Positions 35,809-64,000 of a stretch of 64,000 nt of DNA are shown here, one piece after another. This stretch comes from Candidatus Krumholzibacteriota bacterium (GTDB lineage Bacteria > Krumholzibacteriota > Krumholzibacteriia > Krumholzibacteriales > Krumholzibacteriaceae): the NCBI GenBank assembly GCA_030667985.1, contig DAOUUU010000002.1, forward strand, positions 9,653 through 73,652. Direction: 5' to 3'. Below the pieces are notes generated by a model. The model saw nothing but the letters and a program-made list of their open reading frames with translations. It was not told where the DNA came from and did no database searches. Positions within the stretch are counted from its first letter, which is position 1, and each line of letters starts with the position of its first letter. A program made the translations under genes and the position numbers.

Positions 35809-36108
35809 CAGACGTAAAGATCTCCGGTTCCGGGGTCCGATTCCCCGGGGCCGGGATCTCGGGTTGGTGATAAGAAGAATTATAAAATGAACTAGAAAGC
35901 ATAAGCTAAACGATTAAGCGAAAATGCTGAATTGGAGGTGGGTTTCCATGGTGAGATCGGCCTCTAATTCAGTTTTAGGAGGAAGGTACGGACGATGCGC
36001 CCGAACGATGACATAACCGGTTGATACGTACTCGGTTAGATGATGTCGCGTTTCGGGTTTTCGTCGTTTTCGAGGCGAGACGTGATTGGAAGGGCAAAAA
36101 TAAGAAGA

Positions 36109-50700: not shown

Positions 50701-50918
50701 GGCGACAGGCGGGAAACGCCAGTTGTACCGGCGACCCAGTGGTATCCCTTCTCCTGGATCCACTTGTTCAGATCGGCGATTCTCTGCTCCTCGCTCTTCT
50801 CGGCGCGGAGCGGAGCCGTCGGCAGAATGATAATGGAAACAAATGCGATCAGGGCGATCGCAAGCGAAAACCGGGCGAACAGTCTCATGGGTTGCCTCTC
50901 TTCAAGAATCAATTTCAA
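47721..50918 (-). CDS. secreted multidomain protein: papain-like C1 cysteine peptidase, right-handed parallel beta-helix repeats, T9SS C-terminal sorting domain
   Basis: Signal peptide. C1A active-site region QGACGSCWAFAGVGQLESH with His region NHGVLIVGWDD. Repetitive NxxGGG beta-helix (PbH1-like) units. C-terminal NFPNPFNGTTTIAYSI...IYDTAGRLIKIL...GIYFCRIKTGSFSQTRKIVYLR matches the Por/T9SS CTD (TIGR04183 type). Confidence 0.75.
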   Translation of the reverse strand: MKLILEERQPMRLFARFSLAIALIAFVSIIILPTAPLRAEKSEEQRIADLNKWIQEKGYHWVAGTTGVSRLSPEEKKMLLGYRPVPKELLDKIPVFEPAVPQLEASMLPLTFDWRDNEGTTPAKAQGACGSCWAFAGVGQLESHVRIYDNRIEDLSEQQAIECNSYGAGCGGGWAYAVYEIFEGYGSIDETCMPYEARDDLPCIEDQCDPIAKISSYGMVSTDIAQIKSSVYYTGPVYTGMTVLDDFFDYTSGCYEHETADPNNHGVLIVGWDDFACAGEGAWIIKNSWGPTWGIEGFGYIKYSAARIGRSNYQISYIPSTVMVRVDSPDGGEVWDVESFQQIQWTTSRETPDSLSIYLSINSGETWDYTIATGLFGVNSYSWTVSDLPVPTARIKVVAYFGGEVAGYDWSDEDFIIKGPPYRFVSPTGGDIHPYSTPFWAAHSIQDAVDASDPGDSIMVAEGVYSETVTAIASLHIMGGWDSGFTVRDPETYESRIQRSGSCVSFMNLGTDYCGIEGMTIANGSGTSLSMPVLGNYGGGIFAYNSSPLIKHNTFVNCGTASIVDFSGGGAIAVYNGHAVIENNMITACKAQVGGGVYLYMATADITGNRITGSYGNFEFIGMRGGGGVYAYHASFTMENNVISGCYDYKYGGAVYTRFSPASLSGDSLYSNSVESSGGAVSAERDTMILSGVVITDNTSGTFGGGIHGKAAYFEIENTIVAKNSAMIGGGIYPDSCFGVITNNTFDRNTAVISGGGMYLQGQGALDMRNNIYSYSSPYGVTVLDLSTHTYLYNNCYGNSPGDYSGPVPDTTNIYRNPHYSDTTSFDYHLLVHSGSIDTGDPDIVYNDPDGSRADQGAFGGPAAIMAALEYVKNSSATAVNDTTIQVIWDEISDPSLAYYVIYGDTTEGFVPDELLMLGTAPVGTESFDHYPVTECWYYRVSAVTTLGLGGGYSSESGDCGNDPVGDEPEVPSYVNRLEQNFPNPFNGTTTIAYSIENKSAVDIRIYDTAGRLIKILEQKTREAGQYETIWRGVDNADRAVASGIYFCRIKTGSFSQTRKIVYLR

Positions 50919-51179: not shown

Positions 51180-51980
51180 CTATTCGAACATGTTCTTGAT
51201 CTGACCCCAGGTCGCCTCTTCATTGGCAAAAGCCTGAGTGGTCGACATATAAACATCGTTCACATCGACGACCAGGCCGTGGGCCAGCCAGTAAGACGAG
51301 CCCGAGGTCGGCCATGGATCGAAGATAAGGAGAAGGTCGTCCGCAAAGTCGGGCGTATCGAGGTCGTCGTATCCCGCAATTACCTTGCAGTGACCCGAAC
51401 CGGTCAGCGTCTCGCTCGGAAGGACTCCCTGATCAGCCGGCCAGCTGCCGATGTCCACCCAGAGGACCGGGTGGTTGTTATCGAGGTACCATCTGACGAT
51501 CTCGTAGGTGATCAACGGATTGGGAGTGCCCAAAGGTCCATGCTGGAAAGGCACCATTCCTACCGAATAGGCGAACGCGTTCTGCACCTCTGGAGGTGTA
51601 GTTCCCACGCCTGCGAACATACCGACACCGCGCGTTTCTAAAATGCCGTTACCCATTATCTCGCCAGTGACCTTCGCATTGTCATAGATGTTGTCTATGT
51701 CAATAAAGGGCGCTGCCTGGCCCATGTAGAGGCCGATCATAGAGACGGCCGCAGGGGCGCAGTAGCCCGAGCAGTAGGGACAGGTGTTTGCGGTAGCGCA
51801 GTTCCAGTCATGCACTCTGTTGGCCGGTAAACCGGGGACACTTGGCAGCGCACACAACATAGGAGTGTCCTTGTGCTGCCAGATCTGAGTTATAACTAGC
51901 GTTATTTGTGCACTATAGACCCCACTGGTGAATGCACATAACAAGCATGCTGCTACAACGATTGATAACAAACGCCGCAT
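51180..51980 (-). CDS. secreted papain-fold cysteine peptidase-like protein (peptidase C39-like, PF13529-type)
   Basis: Signal peptide MRRLLSIVVAACLLCAFTSGVYSA. Candidate catalytic Cys in YCAPAAVSMIGLYMGQ and His in SGHCKVIAGYDD (Cys-His-Asp papain-fold pattern). The ORF track extends to 52043. Confidence 0.4.
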   Translation of the reverse strand: MRRLLSIVVAACLLCAFTSGVYSAQITLVITQIWQHKDTPMLCALPSVPGLPANRVHDWNCATANTCPYCSGYCAPAAVSMIGLYMGQAAPFIDIDNIYDNAKVTGEIMGNGILETRGVGMFAGVGTTPPEVQNAFAYSVGMVPFQHGPLGTPNPLITYEIVRWYLDNNHPVLWVDIGSWPADQGVLPSETLTGSGHCKVIAGYDDLDTPDFADDLLLIFDPWPTSGSSYWLAHGLVVDVNDVYMSTTQAFANEEATWGQIKNMFE

Positions 51981-52072
51981 AGCTATATTCCCCCTTGCAT
52001 ATCGATTTCCGCGGACAAGTTCCTCGTGCCGCAGAGTTTGCACCTTTTTATAGGTGGTTAAAGGAGTAACAC

Positions 52073-52660: not shown

Positions 52661-53164
52661 GTGTTGCGATACTTTAGATCGATTTTGCGACTCCCCTTCT
52701 CGAAAAGGGGCAAGGCGAAGCGTTCCATTTGGCGCAAGCTGGGCGTTGCCGGATTCACTCTGCTGGAACTCTTTATCGTTATAGAGATCATCGGTTTCCT
52801 TGCCACAATCGTAATGTCGAATTTTATCAGGTCAAAAAAAGCGGCCCAGGTTGCCGTTGTAGTTCAGAATACGAAGAACATACAGATAGCTCTCACGTCC
52901 TATTTCGCCATGACGGGGAATTATCCAGCCAGCCTGAATACGATATGGCTCCAGTTTTATCAAGGCCGGGTCGTCGGGGCCTACGATTATACTACGGGAC
53001 TTGGAGACCAGTCCGGATGGACTTTTCTGGAGAGCGCCGATCCGAATATTCAGTTCGCGGGGCTCGTGGGAGACTCCTACGCGATAAAGAGTACGGATAA
53101 CCTGCTGCCATACGCTCGGCTTGTATACGGGGACGTGGCTACCTCGGCCAAGATCATCCACTAG
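52661..53164 (+). CDS. prepilin-type N-terminal cleavage/methylation domain protein (type IV pilin / T2SS pseudopilin-like), orphan
   Basis: The class III signal G/FTLLELFIVIEIIGFLATIV matches the G/FTLIELMIVVAIIGILAAIA consensus. The leader before the Gly is unusually long, so the true start may be internal. GTG or TTG start. Confidence 0.55.
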   Translation: MLRYFRSILRLPFSKRGKAKRSIWRKLGVAGFTLLELFIVIEIIGFLATIVMSNFIRSKKAAQVAVVVQNTKNIQIALTSYFAMTGNYPASLNTIWLQFYQGRVVGAYDYTTGLGDQSGWTFLESADPNIQFAGLVGDSYAIKSTDNLLPYARLVYGDVATSAKIIH

Positions 53165-53338: not shown

Positions 53339-54538
53339 ATGAGAAGGACCGCATTATTCATTCTCGGTACGCTCATATCAACGACTTTCGTTGTTCCGGT
53401 CATTTCCACCGAAAATCAAGTCCTGGAGGATGTGATGAAGCTTCACCGCAAGGCGATCGTTTTCGACGCTCACTGCGATACCGCCATGAGGCTCATAGGC
53501 AAGAGGGCCATCGACCTCGGGATCGGTTAGGAGCGTGGGCACATGGATCTGCCCAGGATGCGGGAGGGGGGGCTCGATGCTCAGATCTTCGCATGCTGGC
53601 CCAATCCCAGGCTCGAGAGGGATGTCTATGTCAAGCAGACGCTCCAGATGATTGACGCGCTCTGGGAGCAGTCGGAGCTCCATGCGGATGAGCTCGAGAT
53701 TGCGCTCGTGGGGAAAGAGGTCCGGCGGATCGTCGAATCGGGCAGGGTGGCGGGTATCATAGGTATCGAGGGCGGGCATGCGATCATGGCCGATCTAGGC
53801 GTTCTGCGCGATTACCACCGTCTCGGCGTCAGGTGCATGACCCTGACCTGGATGAACACGAACGAGTGGGCGGACTCCTCGGATGATTCGACCAAATGGG
53901 GCGGCCTGAATGACCTAGGCCGGCAGGTCGTGCGTGAGATGGACCGGCTCGGTATGATCATCGACTGCTCTCACGTCTCCGACAGCACACTCTTCGACGT
54001 CTTCGAGGTGACAGAGAACCCCGTTCTGATATCCCACTCCTGCATGCGTGCCCTCTGCGATATCCCTAGGAATGTCAGCGACGACGAGCTCAGGGCCCTG
54101 AAGAAAAACGGCGGGGTCATCTGCATCAACTACTTCCCCGGATTCCTCGATAAGAAGTTCAACGATGCGGTGACCGGGATCTGGAAGGAGTTCAGGGCGA
54201 GCGCGGACAGCCTCGCCGGCGTTTACAGCGGCGACAGGGAAAAGGCGTGGGATGAGCTCAGGCCGGAATACCGGGAGCGCATGGACGCTCTCGAGAATCC
54301 ATCGGTTACAGTGCTCATCGACCACATAGATCATGCCGTAAAGATCGTTGGAATAGACCACGTGGGGCTCGGCTCCGACTTCGACGGTATCTTGATAACG
54401 CCCGTGGGGCTGGATGATGTGACCGATCTGCCTGTTATAACAGCAGAGCTGGAACGGCGCGGCTACTCCGAGAAGGAGATCGAGAAGATACTCGGGAAAA
54501 ATCTACTGAGGCTCGTGGAGCGGGTCATGCGGCAATAA
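53339..54538 (+). pseudogene. membrane dipeptidase (peptidase M19 family) interrupted by an in-frame TAG at 53528-53530
   Basis: ORFs 53339..53530 and 53543..54538 are in the same frame. Read through, they give signal peptide, VFDAHCDTAMRL (Zn ligands), DLGIG, the stop, then ERGHMDLPRMREGGLDAQIFACW ... GIEGGHAI ... DHIDHAVKIVGIDHVGLGSDFDG. This is a contiguous M19 dipeptidase. TAG is used as a genuine stop elsewhere (for example the ALDH gene). Confidence 0.6.
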
Positions 54539-54612: not shown

Positions 54613-57075
54613 TCAGTAGACCGACACGATCTCATCAAACGGATCGCCGCCTCCTCCGAGGATCGAGCCGAGCGACCGGCCGACCGCCCCCGTGATACCC
54701 CCCTCGTCGAGATGCCAGAATAATCCAGGGAATGCCTTGTAGTAGACGGTGCGGTAGTCATCCTCGATACCCGCCATCGAAGCGGCATGCTCGACCGCGT
54801 CGCTGAGGCCGCCGAGCTTGTCGATTAGCCGTAACTCGAGTGCCTGCGTGCCGAAGTAGACCCTTCCCCGGGCGATCCTCTTCACCTCGTCCATCTCGAT
54901 CTTCCTGCTCGCCGAGACATGCTCGAGGAAATAGTCGTACATCCCGTCGATGTATCCGCCCAGCAGCTCCATCTCTTCATCTGTGAGGCGGCGGCTGGCC
55001 GACATTGCGTCGGAATGCTCGCCCGCCTTGAAGACCTCGTTGGTGATCCCGACCTTTTCGTATAGCCGTTCGATCACCGGTTTTGCAAATACTACCCCTA
55101 TGCTGCCGGTGAGCGTGAAGGGATCGGCGAAGATGGCGTCCCCGTACATGCTTATCCAGTAACCGCCCGAGCCGGCGATGTTGCCCATCGAGATTACGAC
55201 CGGGATGCCCTTCTCCTCCTGTATGCGCCTTAGCTCTGTCAGGATATCGTTGCTCGCGACGGCGGAGCCCCCGCCCGAGTCGACCCTGAAAACGATCGCT
55301 TTGACACAAGGGTTCTTCGCCGCTGCCTCGAGTTGCTTAACGACCGTCTCGGGGCCCATGGTCCTGCCGCCTCTTAAAAGATCACGTTTGCTCTTGCCCG
55401 AGCGTATCGAGCCGTACGCGCCGACGATGGCGACCGTTGGAGGCGGTGTCCACCGCTCCTCTCTGTAAGTGCGGCGGGCGATCGATGTGGTTCTTAACTT
55501 ATCAGGCCTCTCTTCTCCGGCGAGGCGCCCGAGTTCCTCCTTCGCCTCCTTCCCCCGTCCGGTGAGGTCGATCAGGCCCTCCTCTATCGCCTCCTTAGCG
55601 TTGAACATCCTTCCGTCGGCGAGTGAGAGCACCTTCTCGACACTCATCCCCCTACCCTCGGCTATTCCCTCGACGAGCAGGCGGTAGGATTCGTCGACGA
55701 GCGACTGCAGCTCTTCCGCCTGGACAGCTGTCGTTGTATCGGTATAGGGCGTGTGGAAGCTCGATTTGTATTCACCCGCCGTGTAGAAGTCCCAGTCTAT
55801 CCCGAGCTTGGCAAAGAGCCGCTTCATCCGGTTCAGCTCCAGAGAGACGCCGATCATCCCGGCGACGCTCTCTTCCGGCATCACTATGCGATCGGCGGCG
55901 GACGCGAGGTAGAGCTCCGGAGCCCACGCGGTCTCTTTGAGCAGCGCGACGACAGGCTTGCCGGCGGCCCGGACCTTTTCGACGGCCTTTCTGATCTCAT
56001 TCAGGTTGGCGCTGACCGGTCCGATGAACGATCCCTTGATCGGCTTGACCATGATAATGAGGCCCTTGATGTCCGGATCCTTCCTGACGTGCTCTAGCTC
56101 TCGGAGCACCCTGTGCAGATCTTTTCCCGTATCACCCATCAGCGCAAATCCGCCCCCCTCGTCGAGGTAGGTGCCCCCGATCACGATCCCGGCGTAGCGC
56201 TCGGGAGTGAAGATGGATTCCTTGTAGGAGTCGGCCGTCTCGACCAGTACGCCGTACCGGCCGTAGTCGTACTCGCCGCCGATGCGCGAACGGGCCATGT
56301 ATCGCGTCGCCTTCCTGTCGAGCGCGAATATGATCCCGGCGGTGAATTCCTCCCTGGGGTCGGGCGAGGCCGTCGAGTAGTCGCGGGCGTAGGAGCCGTA
56401 GAGCTCGATTCCCGGGACCACCATGAACCTGCCTCCGAAGAGCCAGCCCGGCTTGGTCTTATCGATGAAGTTGCCCTGTCCCGAGAGTGTGATCCGTTCG
56501 GTCAGGGGACGAAGGGAGAGGCCTCCGGTAAAGCTCTCCTCGAGGCGGCCGCCGGCAAAGCGCGGATTGTTCACGTTTCTGAAGAGGCCGCCGATCGAAA
56601 CGTACCGGTGGGGCCTGCCGAGGAATCCAATATCGACGGCGAAGGGCGAGCGGTCGGGTGCCGGTATGTCGGAATGGTGCCAGTGGAGCGAGGTCCCCGC
56701 GTAAAGGCCGGGAAGGAGTTTTGTCCCGACGCCCAGCAGGTATGTGTGTGATGTGTAGACGCCCGTATTCTGGTAGAGGTAACCGATTCCTCCGTTTCTT
56801 CCGGCGAGCGCCAGAGGTATCTCGGCTATACGGTTGTACTGGTAGATCCCGCCGAAGAGTTTGGAATTGTCCTTCCGGACGCCTAATCCTGCGGGGTTGA
56901 CGAAGAGCGCCGCCGCGTCGTCCGCGTCGGTTACGAAACGGAAGCTGTAGATGTCGCTCTGGAAGGGCGAGACCGCCGGTCCCAGAGAGTCCGCAGCCGC
57001 CGCGGCTTCTGCGGGGTTGAATGGAGCAGATAGAACACAGATTACGAACGCTAGAAAGATTGATGCGCGTTTCAC
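54613..57075 (-). CDS. sppA: signal peptide peptidase SppA, 67K type (two S49 domains) with an extra ~250-aa N-terminal beta-rich domain
   Basis: Tandem S49/ClpP-fold domains (IIMVKPIKGSFIGPVSANLNEIRKAVEKVRAAGKPVVALL; IVFRVDSGGGSAVASNDILTELRRIQEEKGIPVVISMGNIAGSGGYWISM). The N-terminal 250 aa show a signal peptide plus an alternating-strand pattern (FRFVTDADDAAALFVNPAGLG...GLSLRPLTERITLSGQGNF) resembling an OM beta-barrel or DUF. Confidence 0.8.
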   Translation of the reverse strand: MKRASIFLAFVICVLSAPFNPAEAAAAADSLGPAVSPFQSDIYSFRFVTDADDAAALFVNPAGLGVRKDNSKLFGGIYQYNRIAEIPLALAGRNGGIGYLYQNTGVYTSHTYLLGVGTKLLPGLYAGTSLHWHHSDIPAPDRSPFAVDIGFLGRPHRYVSIGGLFRNVNNPRFAGGRLEESFTGGLSLRPLTERITLSGQGNFIDKTKPGWLFGGRFMVVPGIELYGSYARDYSTASPDPREEFTAGIIFALDRKATRYMARSRIGGEYDYGRYGVLVETADSYKESIFTPERYAGIVIGGTYLDEGGGFALMGDTGKDLHRVLRELEHVRKDPDIKGLIIMVKPIKGSFIGPVSANLNEIRKAVEKVRAAGKPVVALLKETAWAPELYLASAADRIVMPEESVAGMIGVSLELNRMKRLFAKLGIDWDFYTAGEYKSSFHTPYTDTTTAVQAEELQSLVDESYRLLVEGIAEGRGMSVEKVLSLADGRMFNAKEAIEEGLIDLTGRGKEAKEELGRLAGEERPDKLRTTSIARRTYREERWTPPPTVAIVGAYGSIRSGKSKRDLLRGGRTMGPETVVKQLEAAAKNPCVKAIVFRVDSGGGSAVASNDILTELRRIQEEKGIPVVISMGNIAGSGGYWISMYGDAIFADPFTLTGSIGVVFAKPVIERLYEKVGITNEVFKAGEHSDAMSASRRLTDEEMELLGGYIDGMYDYFLEHVSASRKIEMDEVKRIARGRVYFGTQALELRLIDKLGGLSDAVEHAASMAGIEDDYRTVYYKAFPGLFWHLDEGGITGAVGRSLGSILGGGGDPFDEIVSVY

Positions 57076-57330
57076 GGAGTACCCCCTATGGTTTAGTCGA
57101 ATACAGGAACAATAACAATATCATTACGGAGAATCCAGCGCCAGTGTTTCGAGCGTTCGAAAAAGAGCTGAACCCGGCCCGGGGAGCTGGCCGCATTATG
57201 ATATGCAGCCGCGAATGATTCTCGATCCAACCGGTTTTTCGCTTCCCGGTGGAAAGCAGAGGTTGTTTGTATTACATTTAATATGGTGCCGGCGCCCCCG
57301 GTAAGGATATACTCTGCGGAAGGAGACCAG

Positions 57331-58278
57331 ATGAACTGTGACCCGAGATCCGGCAAGAGCGTATCATTCGTCAAGATAATCCTTTTCAGCCTCGTACTCC
57401 TTTTCCTTGCATCTCTGCTTTTAGCTGATGAGGATGGGGACCACAGGCCGCTGCTCGGTTTCTGGGGTATAATGGCGTATCCGAGGTACTGGATGTCCCT
57501 GGTCTTCGGGCTGCTCGGATTCATCCTGCTACAGAAGGTGCGCTTAACGAAAAATCTCCGTCTTCTCTTCCTGCCGATAATCTTCTTTATTTTCTCTCTC
57601 GTCGAGTTGCTTCCGCTAGGCGTCTTCGCGCAGCGTATGGGCCTGCACCCGAGCCCCGTATGCACCGTGTCAAAGCCGTTTCTCTTCTTCGTAGAGGGCA
57701 AGGTGATCCCGCTTGCCTTCTGGGTCTCGCTTCTCGTCATCGCGGCACTGACGCTCCTCGGCAACAAGCTCTTCTGCGGCTGGGTCTGCCCTGTCGGAGC
57801 GCTGCAGGAGCTCATCCACCGGATCCCCCTTCCTAAAAGGTTCAAACTCGAGGTCCCGTTTAGAGTCGCCAATTCGATCAGGATAGTGATCTTTGCGCTT
57901 TTCATCCTCTTCGTATTCACGATGGGTATCGAGATCTACGAGTATTTCAATCCATTCGAGGTGTTTCACTGGGATCTCGAAGCGGCCGGCCTGGTCATCC
58001 TGGGCGCTGTGATGCTCGTTGCCCTGTTCATGTGGCGCCCATTTTGTTACATCGTTTGTCCATTAGGACTTATAACCTGGGTTCTCGAGCAGTTTTCTTT
58101 GTTCAGGGTAAGGATCGAGCCGGGGATCTGCACCGACTGCGACCGCTGTATCCGGGATAATCCCTGTCTCGCGATGCGGGCGATAGTCAAGGGGAGCCGG
58201 GTCAGGCCCGACTGTTTCGCCTGCGGTCTCTGCATCGAATCCTGCCCGAAGAAGGGCCTCAGATACGACAGGAGATAA
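57331..58278 (+). CDS. polytopic membrane 4Fe-4S ferredoxin-type protein (NapH/MauN/NosR-C-like)
   Basis: Motifs FCGWVCPVGALQE, CTDCDRCIRDNPC and CFACGLCIESCP sit between TM helices. RBS GGAAGGAG before ATG 57331; the ORF track starts at 57283. Confidence 0.65.
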   Translation: MNCDPRSGKSVSFVKIILFSLVLLFLASLLLADEDGDHRPLLGFWGIMAYPRYWMSLVFGLLGFILLQKVRLTKNLRLLFLPIIFFIFSLVELLPLGVFAQRMGLHPSPVCTVSKPFLFFVEGKVIPLAFWVSLLVIAALTLLGNKLFCGWVCPVGALQELIHRIPLPKRFKLEVPFRVANSIRIVIFALFILFVFTMGIEIYEYFNPFEVFHWDLEAAGLVILGAVMLVALFMWRPFCYIVCPLGLITWVLEQFSLFRVRIEPGICTDCDRCIRDNPCLAMRAIVKGSRVRPDCFACGLCIESCPKKGLRYDRR

Positions 58279-58464
58279 ACTGACATAAATACCAAGGAAC
58301 GAGCGATTCTCCCCGGTAGCAGGGATAAACACAAGAGCTTTAAAATATAACGTTTAGCGATTGACAAATCATCCCTGCCTGTGGCACAATACGGATGGCT
58401 CAAGGTGGGGCTTGGAGGCCCGATGCCTGCCCGCTGGCGACTCTCTCCCGAGAAGGATGGTTAA

Positions 58465-61257
58465 ATGCAGAAGCGGAACGCGATACCCTTTCCCATGAAA
58501 GGGATTTTTTGTGCGCTGATCGCAGTCGTGCTGCTCATTCCGCTCTCCCCCGGGGCGCAGCGCAAGGGGCGGTTGGCGGGGCATGTCATTGACGTTCTGT
58601 CCGGGAAGCCGGTTCCGCAGGCGCTCGTCGCGATACAGGGGACGACCATCAGCACTTTGACCGACAGCAAGGGCAAGTTCCACATCGATCTTCCCGAGGG
58701 AAAGTACGGCATCACGATCTTCAAGGAGGATTACTACAGCACCTGCTATCAGGATGTGGAGATAGAGGGCGCGCGGATAACGACCTACAAGTGTGAGATG
58801 GTGCTGGGAGATCCGTCCATGAATATGTTTTTCAATATCGGCGGTATCACGGTGCTGGAGAAGAGGGATCTCCTTCCAGATAAAATAGAGACGACGCACG
58901 AGATATCAAGCGCCGAGATCGAGCACCACCTCGCAACAAATCTGGGCGACATCCTCGACATCCTTCCCGGCGTGGAAAGATCGAAGGCGCCGGGGCTGTC
59001 AAAGCTCAGCCAGGTCGATATACGCGGCGCTGGAATCGTCAGCAACGCGACTGAAAGGAACGCCGCCCTATTCGGTACGAAGGTGATAATCGACGATATT
59101 GCCATATCCAACAACGCGAATCTGCAGACAGGCACGGGGACCGCTTCGGCTGTGACATCGAGCACCGCCGGATCGGGGATCGATCTGAGGGGCATACCCG
59201 CCGACAACATTCAGAAGGTCGAGGTGATAACGGGCGTTCCGTCCGTTGAGTACGGCGATCTCACCACCGGGCTCGTCAAGGTATATACAAAGATGGGGCG
59301 GCAGCCTCACAGGTTGAAACTGAAATCAAATCCTGACACGAAAGAAGGTAACTTCGGCGGCGGTCTTAATCTTGGAAACACCGGGTTATCCTACAACTTG
59401 AATTACGCCTTCAGCGAACGGGACATAAGGCGCGAGGGAGATGAGTACTCCCGTTACAGCGGACAGTTCACCGTGCGGAACAAACTCCTCGGCGAAAAAC
59501 TCCAGATACTGAACAAGATGTACTATACCGGCGTTGACGATCAGAACAACCTGGACAAGAATGATCCTCTCTCAAAGGAATGGTACAACAAGGATTGGAC
59601 GTTTGTGTATGGGCACACGGTCGATTACGAACCTGTCAAGGACACGAAGCTCGAGTGGAGAGCGAACCTGAAATACACGAAACGGAACAGCTTTCATAAG
59701 TCGATGACCGGCGCCGACACACGCGTCCTGACGGACAACATGGAAGAGGGTACGGTCGAAGGAGTATTGAAGGCTGGGGCGTATATTTACGAGATATGGA
59801 CGAAGGGAGAGGAGTGGAACGCGAGCGGCAAGCTGAATTTCAGAACCGATCTCGAACTGGCGGGTTTCGAGCACTCCTTCCTGGCCGGCGGAGAGTACAC
59901 ATTCGACGACAACGTCGGTGAGGGCAAGATATTCGATCCCCTGGAACCTCCCTACGGAAACCTCGGGTACAGGCCGCTGTCGTACGATGAGGTGCCGGCC
60001 CTGCATACGGCCAATCTCTATATGGAGGACGAGATGAGGGGGTACTGGAGATTCAGGCCCTACACGATCAATCTCGGTATCCGGTACGAGATGTACTCGC
60101 CGTACAAGCTGCACCTCGACGGCATCTTCAACGAGAAGGGGGTCGTCGAGTCGAAAAACGGGACCTTCCTGAATCCCCGTGTCCGCATGAAGTACGAGCT
60201 GTTCGACGATACTCAGATACGCTTCGGGTGGGGCAAGAGCTCCAAGATGCCGTCCATGACAAAGATCTTCCAGGGGCCTAAATATTTCGACATAGTCGAG
60301 GAGAACGTCAGCCCTCCGGATTCAGTTCCCCTCGTCAGCACGTACTTATATAGATTCGACAACCGGAACATACTCGGATACCAGAACGAAAAAACCGAGC
60401 TTTCCATCGACAAGAAGATAGGCCAGGTGGGGCTTATCCTTACAGGTTTCCACTCTCGGTCAAAGGATATCCCCCGCACGGTAAACTCCCCGGTCACCCT
60501 CTACCGTTATCACTGGGACACATGGCCGGATGGAGAGCCGACGGTCATAGACACCTTTTACACTGATCCTGGAAATGACGGCTATGCGAGGAATGTGGGC
60601 TGGTCCAAGAATTACGGTGTCGAGTTCCAGTTGCTCACAAAGCGTATCGAGAAGATATCGACCGCTTTCCGCATCTCCGCCTCATACACCAAATCACGCT
60701 CGGGAGCGGACGGCCAATTCATGTCAGGTCCCCGCATTAACTCGGACCTCGGCGATAGGACGATCTATCCTTTCTACCTCTACACACAGCGATGGAGACA
60801 GAAGATGATCGTCAACTACAATGCCGACTGGTTCATCAAGAAGCTCGGGCTATGGGTCACCTTCTTTCTCCAGCAGACCCTTTTCGATGCAGACCAGTAC
60901 GTCACCGACCCGGTATTATACTCGACCGGCTATTATGACCCGGTTCTGGGGGGGGTGGTCCTGGTCACGCCCCAGGAATCGGCGGATCTCGGCCTCGACC
61001 GGTCCTACGACGAGCTGGATCTGGCAATCTCGAGGCGCCCGAATGACAGGTACCTATTCAACGTCAACGTCTCCAAGTCGCTATGGCGCGGTGCCGAGTT
61101 GTCCCTGTTCGTATATAACCTCTTCGACGACCCCGCCTATTACATTAACGAACAGGGCTACTGGAGGACGCGAAACCCGGAGATCTTCTACGGTGTGGAG
61201 TTCAGTATGGTGCTGGACGACCTCTGGAGGCGCGTTTTAAAACAGGAGGGACAGTGA
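58465..61257 (+). CDS. TonB-dependent outer-membrane receptor with N-terminal carboxypeptidase-regulatory-like domain (SusC-like layout)
   Basis: Signal peptide. CarbopepD_reg-like region GHVIDVLSGKPVPQALVAIQGTTISTLTDSKGKFHIDLPEGKYGITIFKEDYYS. Plug region ISSAEIEHHLATNLGDILDILPGVERS. About 700-aa C-terminal barrel with aromatic-rich strands ending ...YGVEFSMVLDDLW. Confidence 0.75.
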   Translation: MQKRNAIPFPMKGIFCALIAVVLLIPLSPGAQRKGRLAGHVIDVLSGKPVPQALVAIQGTTISTLTDSKGKFHIDLPEGKYGITIFKEDYYSTCYQDVEIEGARITTYKCEMVLGDPSMNMFFNIGGITVLEKRDLLPDKIETTHEISSAEIEHHLATNLGDILDILPGVERSKAPGLSKLSQVDIRGAGIVSNATERNAALFGTKVIIDDIAISNNANLQTGTGTASAVTSSTAGSGIDLRGIPADNIQKVEVITGVPSVEYGDLTTGLVKVYTKMGRQPHRLKLKSNPDTKEGNFGGGLNLGNTGLSYNLNYAFSERDIRREGDEYSRYSGQFTVRNKLLGEKLQILNKMYYTGVDDQNNLDKNDPLSKEWYNKDWTFVYGHTVDYEPVKDTKLEWRANLKYTKRNSFHKSMTGADTRVLTDNMEEGTVEGVLKAGAYIYEIWTKGEEWNASGKLNFRTDLELAGFEHSFLAGGEYTFDDNVGEGKIFDPLEPPYGNLGYRPLSYDEVPALHTANLYMEDEMRGYWRFRPYTINLGIRYEMYSPYKLHLDGIFNEKGVVESKNGTFLNPRVRMKYELFDDTQIRFGWGKSSKMPSMTKIFQGPKYFDIVEENVSPPDSVPLVSTYLYRFDNRNILGYQNEKTELSIDKKIGQVGLILTGFHSRSKDIPRTVNSPVTLYRYHWDTWPDGEPTVIDTFYTDPGNDGYARNVGWSKNYGVEFQLLTKRIEKISTAFRISASYTKSRSGADGQFMSGPRINSDLGDRTIYPFYLYTQRWRQKMIVNYNADWFIKKLGLWVTFFLQQTLFDADQYVTDPVLYSTGYYDPVLGGVVLVTPQESADLGLDRSYDELDLAISRRPNDRYLFNVNVSKSLWRGAELSLFVYNLFDDPAYYINEQGYWRTRNPEIFYGVEFSMVLDDLWRRVLKQEGQ

Positions 61258-62375
61258 GAGGGAGCTTGCATCTCGCGGTTGTCATCTCGGCTGCTTTGCT
61301 GGCAGGATGCGGGGTGGATATGCCCGGTACTCCGGACGGAAACGGCAGGGTCTATGTGGCCATAGCCGACACTTCCGGGTACATATCGGGCGAGCCGGGT
61401 GTTCCCTGCTATGTCGACAGCGCCGAGGTCAGTATCCAGTCGAGGACGCACCAATTCACCGCTGTCCTGCTGACCGGCCCTGACGGCGTCGTTGCCCTGG
61501 ACGATCTTGCTACCGGCCGCTACTACCTCTTCGCGCGCAAGGATGTTTATATAGAAAACAACAAAAAAGTCTTCGCGGGCGGGATGGAATTCTACATAAC
61601 GGGGGAAGAGACGGTCGAGGATACGGTGACCGTCGGCCTGATAGCGACGAGCGAACTGATGATCAACGAGATCTACTATACAGGAGCTACCTGTACCTTT
61701 TACATGTTCGACCAGTTCGTGGAGTTATACAACTCATCGAGCGACACTCTCTACCTCGACGGGATCATACTGACGAGGCACTACCCTGCGGCCGAACCGG
61801 ACCAGGACGAAGTCGATTACGTCAAGGCCCTCTATGCCTACCAGTTTCCGGGAACGCCGGTGACGGGACGCGAATATCCGATTCTGCCCGGGCAGTTCGT
61901 GGCGATCGCTTCCGATGCCATCAACCACAGCCTCTACTGTCCCACGAGCATCGACCTCTCCGTCGCCGACTGGGAATGCTTCAATCCACTTGGAAGCGAC
62001 TACGACAATCCAGGCGTCCCAAACCTCGTCAATATCAATCCTTCCCGAACATCGGATTACCTGATAGCCCTGAGCCACAACGCCGTGGTGATTGCGACGG
62101 GTGAGGAGTATACATACGAGGAGTACGGCGATCACGGGAGCATTCGCCTGATCATTCCTCTCCATACGGTGATAGACGGGGTCGAATACGCGACAAGCGC
62201 GACGTCGACCAAGGAGCTGACGATCAATGTGGATGCCGGATTCGCCGGGATAGGAATGACCAAGTACAGCGGCCAGTCGGTGGAACGGAGAGAGCTGGGT
62301 CTCGACACGAACGATTCCACCTTCGATTTTGTGATCATCGCTCCTCCGACACCGGGGTACTCGCACGTGCAATAG
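61254..62375 (+). CDS. lamin-tail-domain (LTD) containing lipoprotein
   Basis: Lipobox LLAGCG. LTD-like core LMINEIYYTGATCTFYMFDQFVELYNSSSDTLYLDGIILTR (compare the LTD consensus INE...EWIELYN...vdLsGw). GTG start with ACAGGAGGG RBS, overlapping the receptor stop. Confidence 0.55.
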   Translation: MRGSLHLAVVISAALLAGCGVDMPGTPDGNGRVYVAIADTSGYISGEPGVPCYVDSAEVSIQSRTHQFTAVLLTGPDGVVALDDLATGRYYLFARKDVYIENNKKVFAGGMEFYITGEETVEDTVTVGLIATSELMINEIYYTGATCTFYMFDQFVELYNSSSDTLYLDGIILTRHYPAAEPDQDEVDYVKALYAYQFPGTPVTGREYPILPGQFVAIASDAINHSLYCPTSIDLSVADWECFNPLGSDYDNPGVPNLVNINPSRTSDYLIALSHNAVVIATGEEYTYEEYGDHGSIRLIIPLHTVIDGVEYATSATSTKELTINVDAGFAGIGMTKYSGQSVERRELGLDTNDSTFDFVIIAPPTPGYSHVQ

Positions 62376-62394
62376 AGGAAAGGGGGGACAGGGC

Positions 62395-63522
62395 GTGAGA
62401 AAAATATTAACAGTGCTGCTTGTCTTCCCTGTCGGGCTCCTGCTCGGTTCGTGCGGAGAGGAGAAACCCGGAGCCCCCGACGGGGATAACGTCTTGACCC
62501 TCGTCGCGATGGACACGTCGGGTGTTTCCAGTGAAGAATGGCTGCCTGTGCCGGGCGCCACGGTCAGGCTGAACAGCCCCACATTCCATTACCAGGAGAC
62601 ATTCGAAACGGACGAAGAGGGCCGTGTGGTCATAACCGATCTTGCGGCGGGAGATTACACGATAATGGCGGAGAAGATAAACGTCGAGGAGAATGTCCTT
62701 ATACTCGGGCAGATGACCAAGCAGCTCCTCTACGATCCCGCCGCGACGGACACGATATTGATGTCCTATATGCAAACATCCCCTATCTCGATCAACGAGG
62801 TCTACTACTGCGGCTGCAGCGCCTCCGCCTATTACTACTACGATCAGTTCTTCGAGCTCTACAACTCGTCCAGCGACACTCTCTACCTCGACGGGCACAT
62901 CATGTGCCGGAGCACGCAGGTCCAGCTCTTTGATTGGGAATCGGTCGACTACGCTGTAGCCTATTTCGTCTATATCTTTCCGGGAACGCGAGGAGTTACA
63001 AAGGAGTGCCCGATCCCCCCGAAGGGATTCCTCGTTCTTGCCGGGGACGCGTATGATCATTCGCTGGTGTCCGGATTATGCGTGGATATGACCTCGGCCG
63101 ATTGGGAGTTCTGCAATCCCATAGAGTTCGATTATGATAATCCCTCCGTGCCCAACATCGACCCGATCACCCTCTGGAGCAGGGATTTCACTATCAATAT
63201 CTCCCATGTGGCGATCTGGCTGGCCACGGGGGAGGATTACTACTTCGATTTTCATTTCGATGGAGACAATATGAAGGAATATGTGAATGTGCCCATCGAG
63301 ACGATCCTCGACGCGGTGGAGTATTCGAGCAATCCGGATTCCCCCAAGTACGTGACCATCCGGATCGACGCGGGGCTTGGAGGAAACGGGATGACCAGAT
63401 ACAGCGCGCGGTCGATAGAGAGAAGGTACCCGGGACTGGATTCGAACAACAGCACCTTCGATTTTGAGATAATCGACACTCCGACCCCAGGATACCAGCA
63501 CCCGAGAGAGGAGGAAGGTTAA
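62395..63522 (+). CDS. lamin-tail-domain (LTD) containing lipoprotein, paralogue of the previous gene
   Basis: Lipobox LLGSCG. ISINEVYYCGCSASAYYYYDQFFELYNSSSDTLYLDGHIMCR. A 36-bp block (acaactc.tc.agcgacactctctacctcgacggg) is conserved at DNA level with 61728-61763. Overall identity to the upstream paralogue is about 35-40%. Confidence 0.55.
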   Translation: MRKILTVLLVFPVGLLLGSCGEEKPGAPDGDNVLTLVAMDTSGVSSEEWLPVPGATVRLNSPTFHYQETFETDEEGRVVITDLAAGDYTIMAEKINVEENVLILGQMTKQLLYDPAATDTILMSYMQTSPISINEVYYCGCSASAYYYYDQFFELYNSSSDTLYLDGHIMCRSTQVQLFDWESVDYAVAYFVYIFPGTRGVTKECPIPPKGFLVLAGDAYDHSLVSGLCVDMTSADWEFCNPIEFDYDNPSVPNIDPITLWSRDFTINISHVAIWLATGEDYYFDFHFDGDNMKEYVNVPIETILDAVEYSSNPDSPKYVTIRIDAGLGGNGMTRYSARSIERRYPGLDSNNSTFDFEIIDTPTPGYQHPREEEG

Positions 63523-63528
63523 CCCAAG

Positions 63529-64000
63529 ATGCGATCGATTGCGACAAACAGGTATGGTTTTGCGGTCCTCTTCCTGGCTTTGTCTCTCGTTGTTGTCGCC
63601 TCTGGCGGCTGGAGCAACGAGCTCAGGACATCGATGATGGGGAACTGCTCGATCGCACTCTACGATGAGGATAACCAGCTCAACCCGTACGACTTCGGGC
63701 ATAATCCCGCCTACATGCTGAATGATCTCGAGTTTGAATGGGTGCGGTTCATCTTCGGGCTCGAGGAGGAGAGAGGGGAGCTAAAACGCCCCTATGATCC
63801 TCTCCTGGTCAACAATCTCTATTTAGGGTTCACCGGTATCAAGAAGCTCAGCGACAGGCATGTGACAAAGGGTTCCTTCGCCTATACGAGGCTCTGGCAG
63901 AGAGAGATCCCCAACGCTCTCGAGATCGACCAGTACAACGATCCATTCTACCTCGTGGACGAAACGACGGGCGATTTCGAGTATTACGGGCCGTCCGCCC
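63529..64000 (+). CDS. secreted hypothetical protein (3' end lies outside the window)
   Basis: ATG 63529 with signal peptide MRSIATNRYGFAVLFLALSLVVVASGGWS. The frame stays open to the window end. Confidence 0.35.
   Translation, partial: MRSIATNRYGFAVLFLALSLVVVASGGWSNELRTSMMGNCSIALYDEDNQLNPYDFGHNPAYMLNDLEFEWVRFIFGLEEERGELKRPYDPLLVNNLYLGFTGIKKLSDRHVTKGSFAYTRLWQREIPNALEIDQYNDPFYLVDETTGDFEYYGPSA

Follow-up and report, generated by a model that had tools for sequence, protein, structure and literature searches.

Which surface proteins would serve a TonB-dependent transporter (TBDT) that has no SusD-like gene beside it, and what would such a complex import? The question is raised by a locus in a stretch of 64,000 nucleotides from a Candidatus Krumholzibacteriota bacterium (contig DAOUUU010000002.1), referred to here as the window, in which a TBDT gene is followed by two paralogous lipoprotein genes. 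A preliminary description read the arrangement as a SusC/SusD-like pairing in which lipoproteins with a lamin tail domain (LTD) may replace SusD. All window features given below with coordinates lie on the + strand.

Results

The transporter gene (58465-61257) encodes a 930-residue protein with a signal peptide. The N-terminal carboxypeptidase-regulatory-like domain (residues 37-108, nucleotides 58573-58788) scored 43 bits against PF13620 and 40 bits against PF13715, bearing out the SusC-like N-terminal domain originally described, and the plug (residues 145-268, nucleotides 58897-59268) scored 41 bits against PF07715, with all three values above the Pfam cutoffs. The barrel region, which spans ∼660 residues after the plug and ends in ...FYGVEFSMVLDDLW plus a nine-residue tail, gave no match to PF00593 in a Pfam scan of this protein; this family is carried by TBDT orthologues at 57-67% identity. 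The pairing as a whole had been called SusC/SusD-like, but the transporter falls outside the SusC family, as TIGR04056 returned 24 bits against a cutoff of 368. The pairing is an analogue of SusC/SusD and not a variant of it.

Gene coordinates were as first described, including an overlap of 4 nt between the TBDT stop and the start of lipoprotein 1, and the gaps that follow are 19 and 6 nt. Approximately 75 nt 5′ of the TBDT start lies a sequence that resembles a promoter (TTGACA-18-CACAAT, the -10 being preceded by TG; 58361-58390), the best consensus match between 57000 and 64000 (10 of 12 positions). The same TTGACA...TGGCACAAT arrangement is found 5′ of the orthologues in loci L062, L063, and L064, and the site is the probable operon promoter. 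The best candidate Fur box upstream in the window matched 10 of 19 positions and is not convincing, only a weak AATCATT-like element overlaps the -35 in close relatives, and a riboswitch search at the locus found none.

Lipoprotein 1 (61254-62375; 373 residues, GTG start) and lipoprotein 2 (62395-63522; 375 residues) are 42% identical (E = 1e-93) and share a two-domain architecture. Each combines a signal peptide with a lipobox (LLAG↓C19, Cys codon 61308-61310, and LLGS↓C20, Cys codon 62452-62454, respectively). The lipobox cysteine does not vary among 42 homologues, and conservation extends to the mature N-terminus, C-x-x-[DE]-[KM]-P-x-x-x-D-G. Both proteins exceeded the PF16215 (DUF4876) cutoff of 27.9 bits, with 76 and 58 bits. 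In lipoprotein 1, a prealbumin/CarboxypepD_reg-like sandwich (about residues 30-124; the CarboxypepD_reg score in lipoprotein 2 is 25.9 bits) precedes a C-terminal LTD-type sandwich with insertions (residues 125-373, nucleotides 61626-62372).

The LTD assignment of the preliminary description holds for the fold but not for the family. The PF00932 matches have significant E-values (27.0 bits, E = 6e-6, for lipoprotein 1; 23.6 bits, E = 7e-5, for lipoprotein 2) but lie below the gathering score of 34.3, and canonical Pfam LTD membership was rejected in favor of DUF4876. The model match covers the N-terminal half of the C-domain, including the INE...ELYN...LxG motif (E = 6e-6), and reached 35.5 bits only once the insertions were artificially taken out; Pfam files the C-terminal half of the LTD-type domain as DUF4876. 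The INEiYY...ELYNsS motif first noted is present in both proteins, lipoprotein 1 reading INEIYY...FVELYNSSSDTLYLDG and lipoprotein 2 INEVYY...FFELYNSSSDTLYLDG. When an AlphaFold model of lipoprotein 1 residues 125-373 (pLDDT 82, pTM 0.85) was used in a fold search, 4Q1Z (BT_1938) ranked first and ranks 2-16 were occupied exclusively by the tail domains of lamins A/C, B1, and B2 (E = 8e-5 to 2e-2; TM normalized to target 0.47-0.62). 4Q1Z is likewise the best match to lipoprotein 1 by sequence (E = 4e-13) and by profile (E = 4e-26), and its fold-search E-values are 2e-17 and 7.5e-16. As modeled, the C-terminal ∼250 residues of the lipoproteins have an LTD-type fold, in common with the lamin tail domain (PF00932; 1IFR, 3UMN), and because of the insertions they exceed the ∼110 residues of the latter.

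The tandem duplication, with a 36-bp block conserved between the two genes at the DNA level, had been taken as a sign of recent diversification of specificity. The block is present but inexact: 73 nt (61696-61768 and 62828-62900) align with 81% identity, with two mismatches in the 36-nt core and an exact run of 24 nt. It encodes FxELYNSSSDTLYLDG, the most conserved motif of the DUF4876 family, in which E157, N160, L168, and D169 are conserved across phyla, and so merely reflects an invariant motif. In a tree, the two paralogues fall into two deep clades, each with orthologues from all sampled Krumholzibacteriota; lipoprotein 1 is of the first-copy type, and lipoprotein 2, of the last-copy type, groups with whichever DUF4876 gene comes last in each Krumholzibacteriota locus. 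By this topology the tandem duplication is ancient, not recent, and the retention of both clades in every Krumholzibacteriota locus argues for distinct roles of the two lipoproteins.

The pairing is conserved well beyond this genome. A homologous TBDT lies directly 5′ of DUF4876 in at least 35 of the 43 loci with room for one, and a full-length DUF6850 gene lies directly 3′ in at least 39 of 46, counts that cover about eight phylum-level lineages. The conserved order is TBDT, DUF4876 (one to four copies), DUF6850, and often then a double β-propeller sorted by the type IX secretion system (T9SS), as seen in Krumholzibacteriota, Marinimicrobia, Ignavibacteria, Calditrichia, KSB1, Cloacimonadota, Zhuqueibacterota, and Bacteroidota. 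Divergence of the TBDT tracks that of the lipoproteins (Spearman 0.87). The neighborhood survey thus identifies the lipoproteins as conserved TBDT partners.

The gene at 63529, initially described as that of a secreted protein, does start with a signal peptide but encodes a DUF6850 outer-membrane β-barrel, a conserved part of the module. Only its start is present (63529-64000, ATG), as the window end cuts the gene; the 157-residue fragment scored 38 bits against PF21012 (cutoff 27), and full-length orthologues have 485-496 residues. In relatives, the double β-propeller directly 3′ of DUF6850 carries a T9SS C-terminal sorting domain and BNR/Asp-box repeats, with an F510_1955 glycosylhydrolase score of 42 bits against a cutoff of 175. 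This order recalls PorQ/PorZ and PorV/PorU of the T9SS, in which a barrel fixes a CTD protein to the cell surface. The match of DUF6850 to the PorV/PorQ model is only faint (22 bits, cutoff 90) and no match to PorZ was seen, the propeller of relatives lying outside the window.

Upstream of the TBDT, a NapH/MauN-like membrane polyferredoxin (57283-58278; 331 residues) has Fer4_5 CxxCP membrane motifs and a C-terminal 2x[4Fe-4S] domain (Pfam Fer4_5, 51 bits; NCBIfam NapH/MauN, 81-83 bits, below cutoff). A Fer4_5 gene is also directly 5′ of the TBDT in L062 and L063, the two closest relatives with enough contig, and near the module in a Marinimicrobia (L042), a Bacteroidales (L057), and a Muribaculaceae (L058) locus; it is missing from most other Krumholzibacteriota loci. 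The association is recurrent, not universal, and the protein is a candidate inner-membrane redox partner. In agreement with the original reading, no SusD-like gene was matched among the flanking genes scanned by Pfam. The scan took in the two lipoproteins, the NapH-like gene, the start of DUF6850, and, upstream, a 167-residue ORF and the S49, C39-like, and C1 genes.

Discussion

The proposal that these lipoproteins replace SusD agrees with published work, in which DUF4876 proteins were put forward as non-SusD 'lids' (Price, Deutschbauer and Arkin 2023, bioRxiv 10.1101/2023.03.17.533168). That study found DUF4876-TBDT gene proximity conserved in 59-81 genera, 'virtually all' in Bacteroidota. 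The idea itself is therefore not new, and the window adds an example from a Krumholzibacteriota-like host. Two Bacteroides thetaiotaomicron systems, BT1939/BT1938 (4Q1Z) and BT3633/BT3632/BT3631, belong to the same Pfam family and likewise place the lipoprotein directly 3′ of a homologous non-SusC TBDT with an N-terminal CarboxypepD_reg-like domain; BT3631/32 is also a tandem DUF4876 pair, and in Bacteroidales L057 DUF6850 follows DUF4876 (118 bits) as in the window. Identity to the B. thetaiotaomicron systems is, however, only about 23-28%, the PepSY, DUF4857, and ABC genes present in BT3625-33 are missing from the window module, and in its lineage and relatives the module occurs with a T9SS β-propeller, a tricorn-like protease, and a NapH-like gene. 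PG1019 (DUF4876 lipoprotein) and PG1020 (TBDT) of Porphyromonas gingivalis show the same family pairing, although their host is a host-associated heme auxotroph and the orthologues are distant; they were still termed an 'uncharacterized transport system' in 2026 (PMC13096392).

Other known systems are analogues. SusC/SusD (RagA/RagB) also combines a TBDT, with an N-terminal carboxypeptidase-regulatory-like domain, with a surface lipoprotein believed to form a cap over the barrel and to bind cargo, but SusD is helical and TPR-like whereas the window lipoproteins are all-β (prealbumin-like plus LTD), and the predicted Bacteroides DUF4876 lids leave a large opening in place of the enclosed SusC/SusD-type cavity (10.1101/2023.03.17.533168). 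XusA/XusB/XusC and BtuB/BtuG, whose cargo is known, likewise join a TBDT outside the SusC family to a surface lipoprotein that is not a SusD, and the inner-membrane reductase partner XusC is conceptually like the NapH-like polyferredoxin; XusB and BtuG are nevertheless unrelated to DUF4876 (DUF4374 and BtuG β-propeller).

Could the lipoproteins instead face the periplasm or be structural, for example as assembly or stabilizing factors for the TBDT or the DUF6850 barrel? That lipoproteins are exported to the surface is established for Bacteroidota but unproven in Krumholzibacteriota, a second barrel they could serve is encoded directly 3′ in most loci, and B. thetaiotaomicron DUF4876 pairs gave no clear fitness phenotype in 519 conditions (10.1101/2023.03.17.533168). 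We nevertheless consider this role unlikely, as a BT1938 homologue is protease-accessible and biotin-labeled on intact B. fragilis cells, and in AlphaFold-Multimer predictions BT1938 and BT3632 sit on the extracellular face through high-confidence contacts that were absent in 23 control pairs (10.1101/2023.03.17.533168). The D/E at position +4, present in 62% of copies, is compatible with a Bacteroidota-type export signal.

With regard to cargo, the preliminary description suggested extracellular DNA, nucleotides, or a glycan. Fusion to secreted nucleases and phosphatases is frequent among bacterial LTDs, the LTD fold was confirmed by the fold search, and the Asp-box repeats of the relatives' propeller, with its weak F510_1955 match, are also known from glycosidases. 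As a generic β-sandwich scaffold, however, the LTD fold by itself predicts no ligand. The module holds no nuclease, phosphatase, or glycoside hydrolase gene, and across the approximately 60 loci examined none of the nuclease, phosphatase, or carbohydrate-active enzyme families attained its cutoff. The Bacteroidota orthologues belong to an iron/heme-starvation stimulon, and it is iron and heme that they respond to rather than carbohydrate or phosphate. Such cargo is very unlikely. Iron depletion raised expression of PG1019-22 by 21-214-fold and of BT3625-33 by 37-128-fold (PMC10434189). In P. gingivalis, excess hemin represses the DUF4876 gene (PMC10470040), and a hemH mutant grown in the absence of heme shows induction of PG1019/20 (PMC13096392). 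PG1019/PG1020 are the only DUF4876-TBDT members with consistent expression data, and the DUF4857 and ABC ATPase genes of BT3625-33 recur in loci of Marinimicrobia and Marinifilaceae. Induction of these orthologues by iron or heme starvation argues for iron-related cargo. Judged only from the regulation of orthologues that are about 25% identical to the window lipoproteins, the cargo would most likely be an iron-bearing compound, such as a chelate, a heme-like molecule, or a small iron protein.

Against such cargo count the lack of a convincing Fur box upstream in the window, the negative riboswitch search, and the rarity of the polyferredoxin in Krumholzibacteriota; moreover, the genes flanking the module in this phylum are mostly peptidases, not iron genes. 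In a rival reading, the TBDT and its lids might take up a protein or oligopeptide, possibly iron-bearing, that neighboring peptidases process, as in Fus (FusA/FusC) or YddB/PqqL (PMC6793856). Peptidases of different families recur on the same strand adjoining the module from phylum to phylum: eight loci have a fused double M16 peptidase (about 914-935 residues), a tricorn-like S41 protease follows the module in Krumholzibacteriota and L049, S46 is present in L057, and M19 and S49 lie upstream in the window and its relatives. Grinter et al. 2019 (PMC6793856) described TBDT-protease clusters for protein import and noted that FusC can be substituted by other proteases or by redox enzymes, and the ∼660-residue barrel region exceeds the median of 569 for lid-associated TBDTs in B. 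thetaiotaomicron (10.1101/2023.03.17.533168). Like Fus and YddB/PqqL, several distant module loci combine a TBDT, a large M16 peptidase, and an ABC ATPase, and iron-responsive expression in characterized relatives is a further likeness. However, Fus and YddB/PqqL were described in Proteobacteria and lack lid lipoproteins, an M16 gene is absent from the window, the M16 proteins found elsewhere are of a generic M16B-like type (4NNZ 216 bits; PqqL 83, FusC 65) and outside the FusC/PqqL clade, no sequence match of the window TBDT to FusA, YddB, or a solved TBDT could be detected at E ≤ 1e-3, and peptidase synteny in Krumholzibacteriota may be inherited gene order and not function. Protease-associated import is thus possible but doubtful.

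We consider it likely that the locus is the start of an operon for an 'alternate lid'-type TonB-dependent outer-membrane import complex with DUF4876 lids, for which iron-bearing cargo is the likeliest. A 22-strand-type non-SusC transporter would be served by two non-redundant DUF4876 lipoproteins, which would be flipped to the cell surface and there form a partly open lid over the barrel's extracellular face that captures cargo, before TonB pulls the plug. The DUF6850 barrel would be a conserved accessory, as would the type-IX-secreted double β-propeller in relatives, and the NapH-like polyferredoxin encoded just 5′ may reduce the imported cargo.

Organization of the locus and identity of the transporter

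The TonB-dependent transporter (TBDT) gene runs from 58465 to 61257 on the forward strand and encodes 930 aa. Its stop codon overlaps by 4 nt the GTG start of lipoprotein 1 (61254-62375, +, 373 aa), and lipoprotein 2 (62395-63522, +, 375 aa) begins 19 nt beyond the first. A preliminary description of this DNA had placed all three open reading frames exactly and had recorded the stop overlap. Six nucleotides after lipoprotein 2, an ATG opens a further gene (63529-64000, +) that is cut by the window end. This gene had been described as encoding a secreted protein and does specify a signal peptide, but its identity is the start of a DUF6850 barrel, as the 157-aa fragment scores 38.3 bits against PF21012 (cutoff 27).

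Domain searches placed the CarboxypepD_reg models (PF13620 and PF13715) and the plug (PF07715, 40.7 bits against a cutoff of 23.9) above their Pfam cutoffs on the transporter, as the preliminary description had anticipated. The PF00593 barrel model, which it had also expected, was not reported by Pfam for the window protein, whereas orthologues of 57-67% identity have it on record. TIGR01783 gave a partial match over residues 147-475, and the terminal aromatic residue usual for barrels is present (...FYGVEFSMVLDDLW). Krumholzibacteriota copies carry a short added tail at the C-terminus, and distant homologues end in ...DxLF. A comparison with PDB sequences returned no solved TBDT at E<=1e-3. 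By these features the window protein appears to have the plug and C-terminal beta-barrel that characterize TonB-dependent transporters in general. Membership of the SusC family, by contrast, is rejected: the SusC/RagA model TIGR04056 scored 24.1 bits against a trusted cutoff of 368.25 and covered only the N-terminal domain and plug. The earlier idea of a SusC/SusD-like pairing therefore keeps its CarboxypepD_reg domain and loses its SusC assignment, while its remark that no SusD gene is present holds, with no SusD/RagB-type family found in either lipoprotein or in the flanking genes scanned.

The lipoproteins belong to DUF4876 and are predicted to contain a lamin-tail-type domain

Both downstream proteins have a signal peptide and lipobox (LLAG/C19 in lipoprotein 1, LLGS/C20 in lipoprotein 2), and all 42 homologues in an alignment keep the lipobox cysteine. 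Aligned end to end, the two show 42% identity (E 1e-93), and both contain the motif INEIYY...FVELYNSSSDTLYLDG quoted earlier. The DNA-conserved block noted previously between their genes exists, but is looser than claimed: 73 nt at 81% identity, with two mismatches in the 36-nt core. It does nothing more than encode the motif that the family conserves best (E157, N160, L168 and D169).

Formally, the lipoproteins are members of DUF4876 (PF16215; 76.2 bits for lipoprotein 1 and 58.4 bits for lipoprotein 2, cutoff 27.9; residues ~212-365). They had been described as lamin tail domain (LTD) proteins, and a PF00932 search over residues ~130-222 gave scores of 27.0 and 23.6 bits that are significant (E 6e-6 and 7e-5; model positions 4-71 of 109), yet lie under the gathering score of 34.3 bits, so canonical Pfam LTD membership is rejected. 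A weak CarboxypepD_reg/prealbumin-like Pfam match covers residues ~50-100. The sole solved sequence relative is 4Q1Z (E 4e-13; profile E 3.8e-26 over residues 56-361), which the fold search showed to be BT_1938, a DUF4876 protein from Bacteroides thetaiotaomicron, and it was also matched by a model of the whole lipoprotein (pLDDT 79; Foldseek E 2e-17). When residues 125-373 were modeled alone (pLDDT 82, pTM 0.85), 4Q1Z again ranked first in the PDB (E 7.5e-16, TMq 0.74). Ranks 2-16 were occupied only by the Ig-like tails of lamins A/C, B1 and B2 (E 8e-5 to 2e-2, probability 0.96-1.00, TMt 0.47-0.62), and the matches after them were unrelated (E ~0.1). In silico deletion of the predicted insertions extended the LTD match to model positions 4-94 of 109 at 35.5 bits, barely above the cutoff. 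Because of the lamin-tail matches and the passing of the cutoff by the deleted construct, the LTD call was structurally right even though the Pfam threshold is missed. The C-terminal ~250 residues are predicted to be an LTD-type sandwich enlarged by insertions, with the DUF4876 model spanning its second half.

Across phyla, mature DUF4876 proteins share an N-terminal motif, C-x-x-[D/E]-[K/M]-P-x-x-x-D-G (window positions 61308-61346 and 62452-62490; homologous loci L002-L052), and position +4 is acidic in 62% of copies. The motif may serve for surface export in lineages other than Bacteroidota, or else for contact with the transporter. Orphan DUF4876-like genes with no adjacent TBDT or DUF6850 were also seen in other genomes (L009 7863-9110, L037 4186-5685, L043 1152-2537 and L045 1916-3298), some of them longer (~460-500 aa) with extra N-terminal Ig-like repeats.

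Correspondence with proposed transporter lids

Price, Deutschbauer and Arkin looked for lipoproteins encoded next to the 18 non-SusC transporters of B. thetaiotaomicron and proposed six non-SusD "lid" families, including DUF4876 (BT1938 with BT1939, and BT3632 with BT3633; bioRxiv 10.1101/2023.03.17.533168). In their AlphaFold-Multimer models the lids sit on the outer face of the transporter and leave an opening of ~20 A, while control pairings gave no confident contacts; lid-transporter gene proximity was conserved in 59-81 genera, a B. fragilis homologue of BT1938 is surface-exposed, and the DUF4876 pairs gave no fitness phenotype (bioRxiv 10.1101/2023.03.17.533168). BT3631 and BT3632 likewise form a tandem DUF4876 pair. 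The window locus shares sequence and gene-order features with such systems, namely lipoboxes bearing an invariant cysteine, a 4-nt overlap with the TBDT gene, a TBDT that fails the SusC model, and gene proximity conserved beyond one bacterial family. By this analogy the window lipoproteins are probably lid-type partners of the transporter. The suggestion in the preliminary description that they stand in for SusD agrees with the lid proposal, which had anticipated it.

Conservation of the module across phyla

Among named homologues, those closest to the window proteins come from Candidatus Krumholzibacteriota; the best hit is 96% identical, on a 1.9-kb contig. Contigs bearing homologues were examined, a family-profile scan of one genome per species yielded 56 loci, and all were analyzed by BLAST and locally built HMMs. 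The conserved order is TBDT, one to four DUF4876 genes and DUF6850, usually followed by a double beta-propeller with a type IX secretion (T9SS) sorting domain. A homologous TBDT lies directly upstream in at least 35 of the 43 loci with room for one, and DUF6850 directly follows DUF4876 in at least 39 of 46. These figures are lower limits, since several misses are artefacts of stop-to-stop ORF coordinates; DUF6850 in the Bacteroidales locus L057, for example, is confirmed by Pfam at 118 bits. The pairing of receptor and lipoprotein is therefore not unique to one genome and extends over about eight lineages: Krumholzibacteriota, Zhuqueibacterota, Ignavibacteria, Cloacimonadota, Marinimicrobia, Calditrichia, KSB1 and several Bacteroidota. 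For most lid pairs, the published conserved proximity was "virtually all" in Bacteroidota (bioRxiv 10.1101/2023.03.17.533168). Judged from gene order and homology, the module considered here is ancient and FCB-wide, not restricted to that phylum. TBDT and lipoprotein divergence from the window copies co-vary (Spearman 0.87), as they would for any two vertically inherited genes, and this fits one co-inherited transporter-lid subfamily.

The tandem arrangement had been read as a recent diversification of specificity. A neighbor-joining tree of 99 DUF4876 copies rules this out, because the Krumholzibacteriota sequences fall into two deep clades, and lipoprotein 1 groups in one of them with all first and middle copies from Krumholzibacteriota loci, lipoprotein 2 in the other with every last copy. 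Orthologues are 50-60% identical to the window copies, as compared to 42% between the window paralogues. The duplication therefore came before the sampled members of the phylum diversified, and they have retained both copies, which suggests distinct roles, such as two different lids on one barrel or dimer. Some lineages have gained further copies of the first type.

DUF6850 and beta-propeller partners

In each of the phyla sampled, DUF6850 is a near-obligatory third member of the module. Its full-length orthologues, at 50-118 bits, are predicted outer-membrane barrels of ~490 aa (for example at L001 12405-13883, L003 11274-12764 and L057 6360-7919). No match was found among PDB sequences, the similarity to the PorV/PorQ family is too faint to support membership (NF033709, 22.1 bits against 90), and no paper mentioning DUF6850 was found in the literature searched. 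In most Krumholzibacteriota, Marinimicrobia, Ignavibacteria and Cloacimonadota loci, a double beta-propeller (BNR/Ycf48/sortilin-like, ~740-820 aa) with a T9SS sorting domain lies 3' of DUF6850 (L003 12904-15204, L001 14021-15375, L042 2628-5090, L061 5842-8055); its only matches among PDB sequences were Ycf48-like propellers, PorZ being absent. Synteny with the closest relatives (L061-L063) predicts genes for the propeller and for a tricorn-like protease past the end of the window. The arrangement resembles PorQ/PorZ, in which a barrel anchors a CTD protein. Given a CTD double propeller after DUF6850 and T9SS cargo in the organism (the C1 peptidase at 47721-50918), a similar anchoring of the propeller by DUF6850 is conceivable.

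Redox and peptidase neighbors

Directly upstream of the TBDT, a NapH/MauN/CcoG-like membrane polyferredoxin (57283-58278, +) combines Fer4_5 with two [4Fe-4S] clusters. This placement is shared by the two closest relatives whose contigs extend far enough (L062 1836-2834 and L063 552-1502), and larger Fer4_5 proteins (620-715 aa) are found close to the module in Marinimicrobia and Bacteroidales (L042 5373-7241, L057 9410-11554), with another in Muribaculaceae (L058 2-919, -); the polyferredoxin is present in one Krumholzibacteriota sub-lineage and absent from most other loci of that phylum. It is reminiscent of the reductases that partner the Xus and BT3625-33 systems at the inner membrane, an analogy which suggests a reductive step after import, where the polyferredoxin may serve as redox partner for the cargo.

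Peptidases also recur beside the module, namely a fused double M16 (8 loci), tricorn-like S41, S46, S49 and M19. The double M16 genes encode ~914-935 aa on the strand of the module, inside or beside it, at L034 10768-13509, L041 2423-5284, L044 2405-5236 and L047 2442-5249, and further examples are at L051 8952-11798, L052 12894-15800, L038 13816-16596 and L053 3-2426. These loci come from several phyla and often have an ABC ATPase and a DUF4857 gene alongside. They recall the TBDT-protease clustering of proteobacterial Fus and YddB-PqqL protease-associated import (PMC6793856), but the M16 neighbors are nearer to generic M16B than to PqqL or FusC, and the window itself has no M16 gene and no PDB match for its TBDT at E<=1e-3; assignment to a Fus-type system is not supported.

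An S49 (SppA-like) peptidase (54613-57075, -; 820 aa) with a signal peptide and a ~300-aa N-terminal region without a Pfam match has kept its position, with the M19 dipeptidase on one side and the TBDT on the other, in many loci of Krumholzibacteriota (L003, L011, L017, L023, L030, L032, L064). Further upstream, a protein-degradation run whose gene order is syntenic across the phylum (47721-50918, -; 51180-52043, -; 52661-53164, +; 53543-54538, +) includes a 1065-aa papain-family C1 peptidase (47721-50918) with a beta-helix and T9SS sorting domain, a C39-like peptidase and the M19 dipeptidase. Among these genes is a 167-aa ORF with no Pfam match, whose hydrophobic N-terminal segment looks prepilin-signal-like by eye. 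Elsewhere in the window, three very large adjacent proteins (33112-35808, 36040-41916 and 41942-45577, all +; 898, 1958 and 1211 aa) contain DUF11, NPCBM-associated/NEW3 and SdrD-B-like repeats, with an internal OmpA domain in the largest, and are probably cell-surface proteins.

Regulation and candidate cargo

The only functional data are transcriptomes of distant Bacteroidota orthologues. On iron depletion, PG1019-22 rose 21-214-fold and BT3625-33 rose 37-128-fold (PMC10434189). The P. gingivalis DUF4876 gene is strongly repressed under excess hemin (PMC10470040), and PG1019/20, labeled an "uncharacterised transport system" in 2026, are induced in a hemH mutant without heme (PMC13096392). 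Marinimicrobia and Marinifilaceae loci have DUF4857 and ABC ATPase genes as in the BT3625-33 operon, and other loci have a HEAT-repeat protein gene as in BT1933-39. DNA, nucleotides or a glycan had been proposed as ligands, but no pointer to any of these was found across the ~60 loci examined. By analogy with the regulated orthologues the cargo may be iron-related, a reading we hold tentatively and somewhat short of even confidence.

In the window, the best match to a classical Fur box upstream of the TBDT agreed at 10 of 19 positions, no better than chance; in a few relatives 13-14 of 19 agreed. When 9-mers were searched without bias, motifs common to 12-13 of 23 upstream regions emerged, as compared to 8-9 in shuffles, mainly G/C-rich or A/T-rich words. 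The sequence TTGACAATCATT is conserved at -35 in close relatives and is only suggestive as a Fur site. The window has a good promoter-like site, TTGACA-18-CACAAT (58361-58390, +), which close relatives share; their copies overlap a weakly Fur-like AATCATT element. No riboswitch or other RNA element passed gathering thresholds in the whole window, and at E<=1 the region 57000-58700 gave just one chance-level miRNA match.

Implications

Transporters with non-SusD lids are a recently recognized and still largely uncharacterized class, and DUF4876-type genes are among those most strongly induced by iron or heme starvation in Bacteroides and Porphyromonas. The TBDT, LTD-fold lids, DUF6850 barrel, T9SS propeller, and protease or polyferredoxin might together form a single FCB-wide surface machine importing an iron-bearing macromolecule that is then reduced or proteolysed, with the sorting domain of the propeller tethering it to the cell surface via the DUF6850 barrel, much as PorZ is anchored by PorQ. 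We regard this as unlikely; if true, the machine would be an FCB counterpart, built from unrelated parts, of the proteobacterial Fus ferredoxin-piracy systems. The locus establishes no new principle and is an example of a DUF4876-lid system from a poorly known phylum, the idea having been anticipated by the 2023 preprint. What is added here is the LTD fold of DUF4876, the FCB-wide module, its DUF6850 and propeller partners, and the recurrent polyferredoxin and peptidase neighbors. With DUF6850, the T9SS propeller, Fer4_5 proteins and peptidases as further conserved partners, the hypotheses on cargo and mechanism are narrowed.
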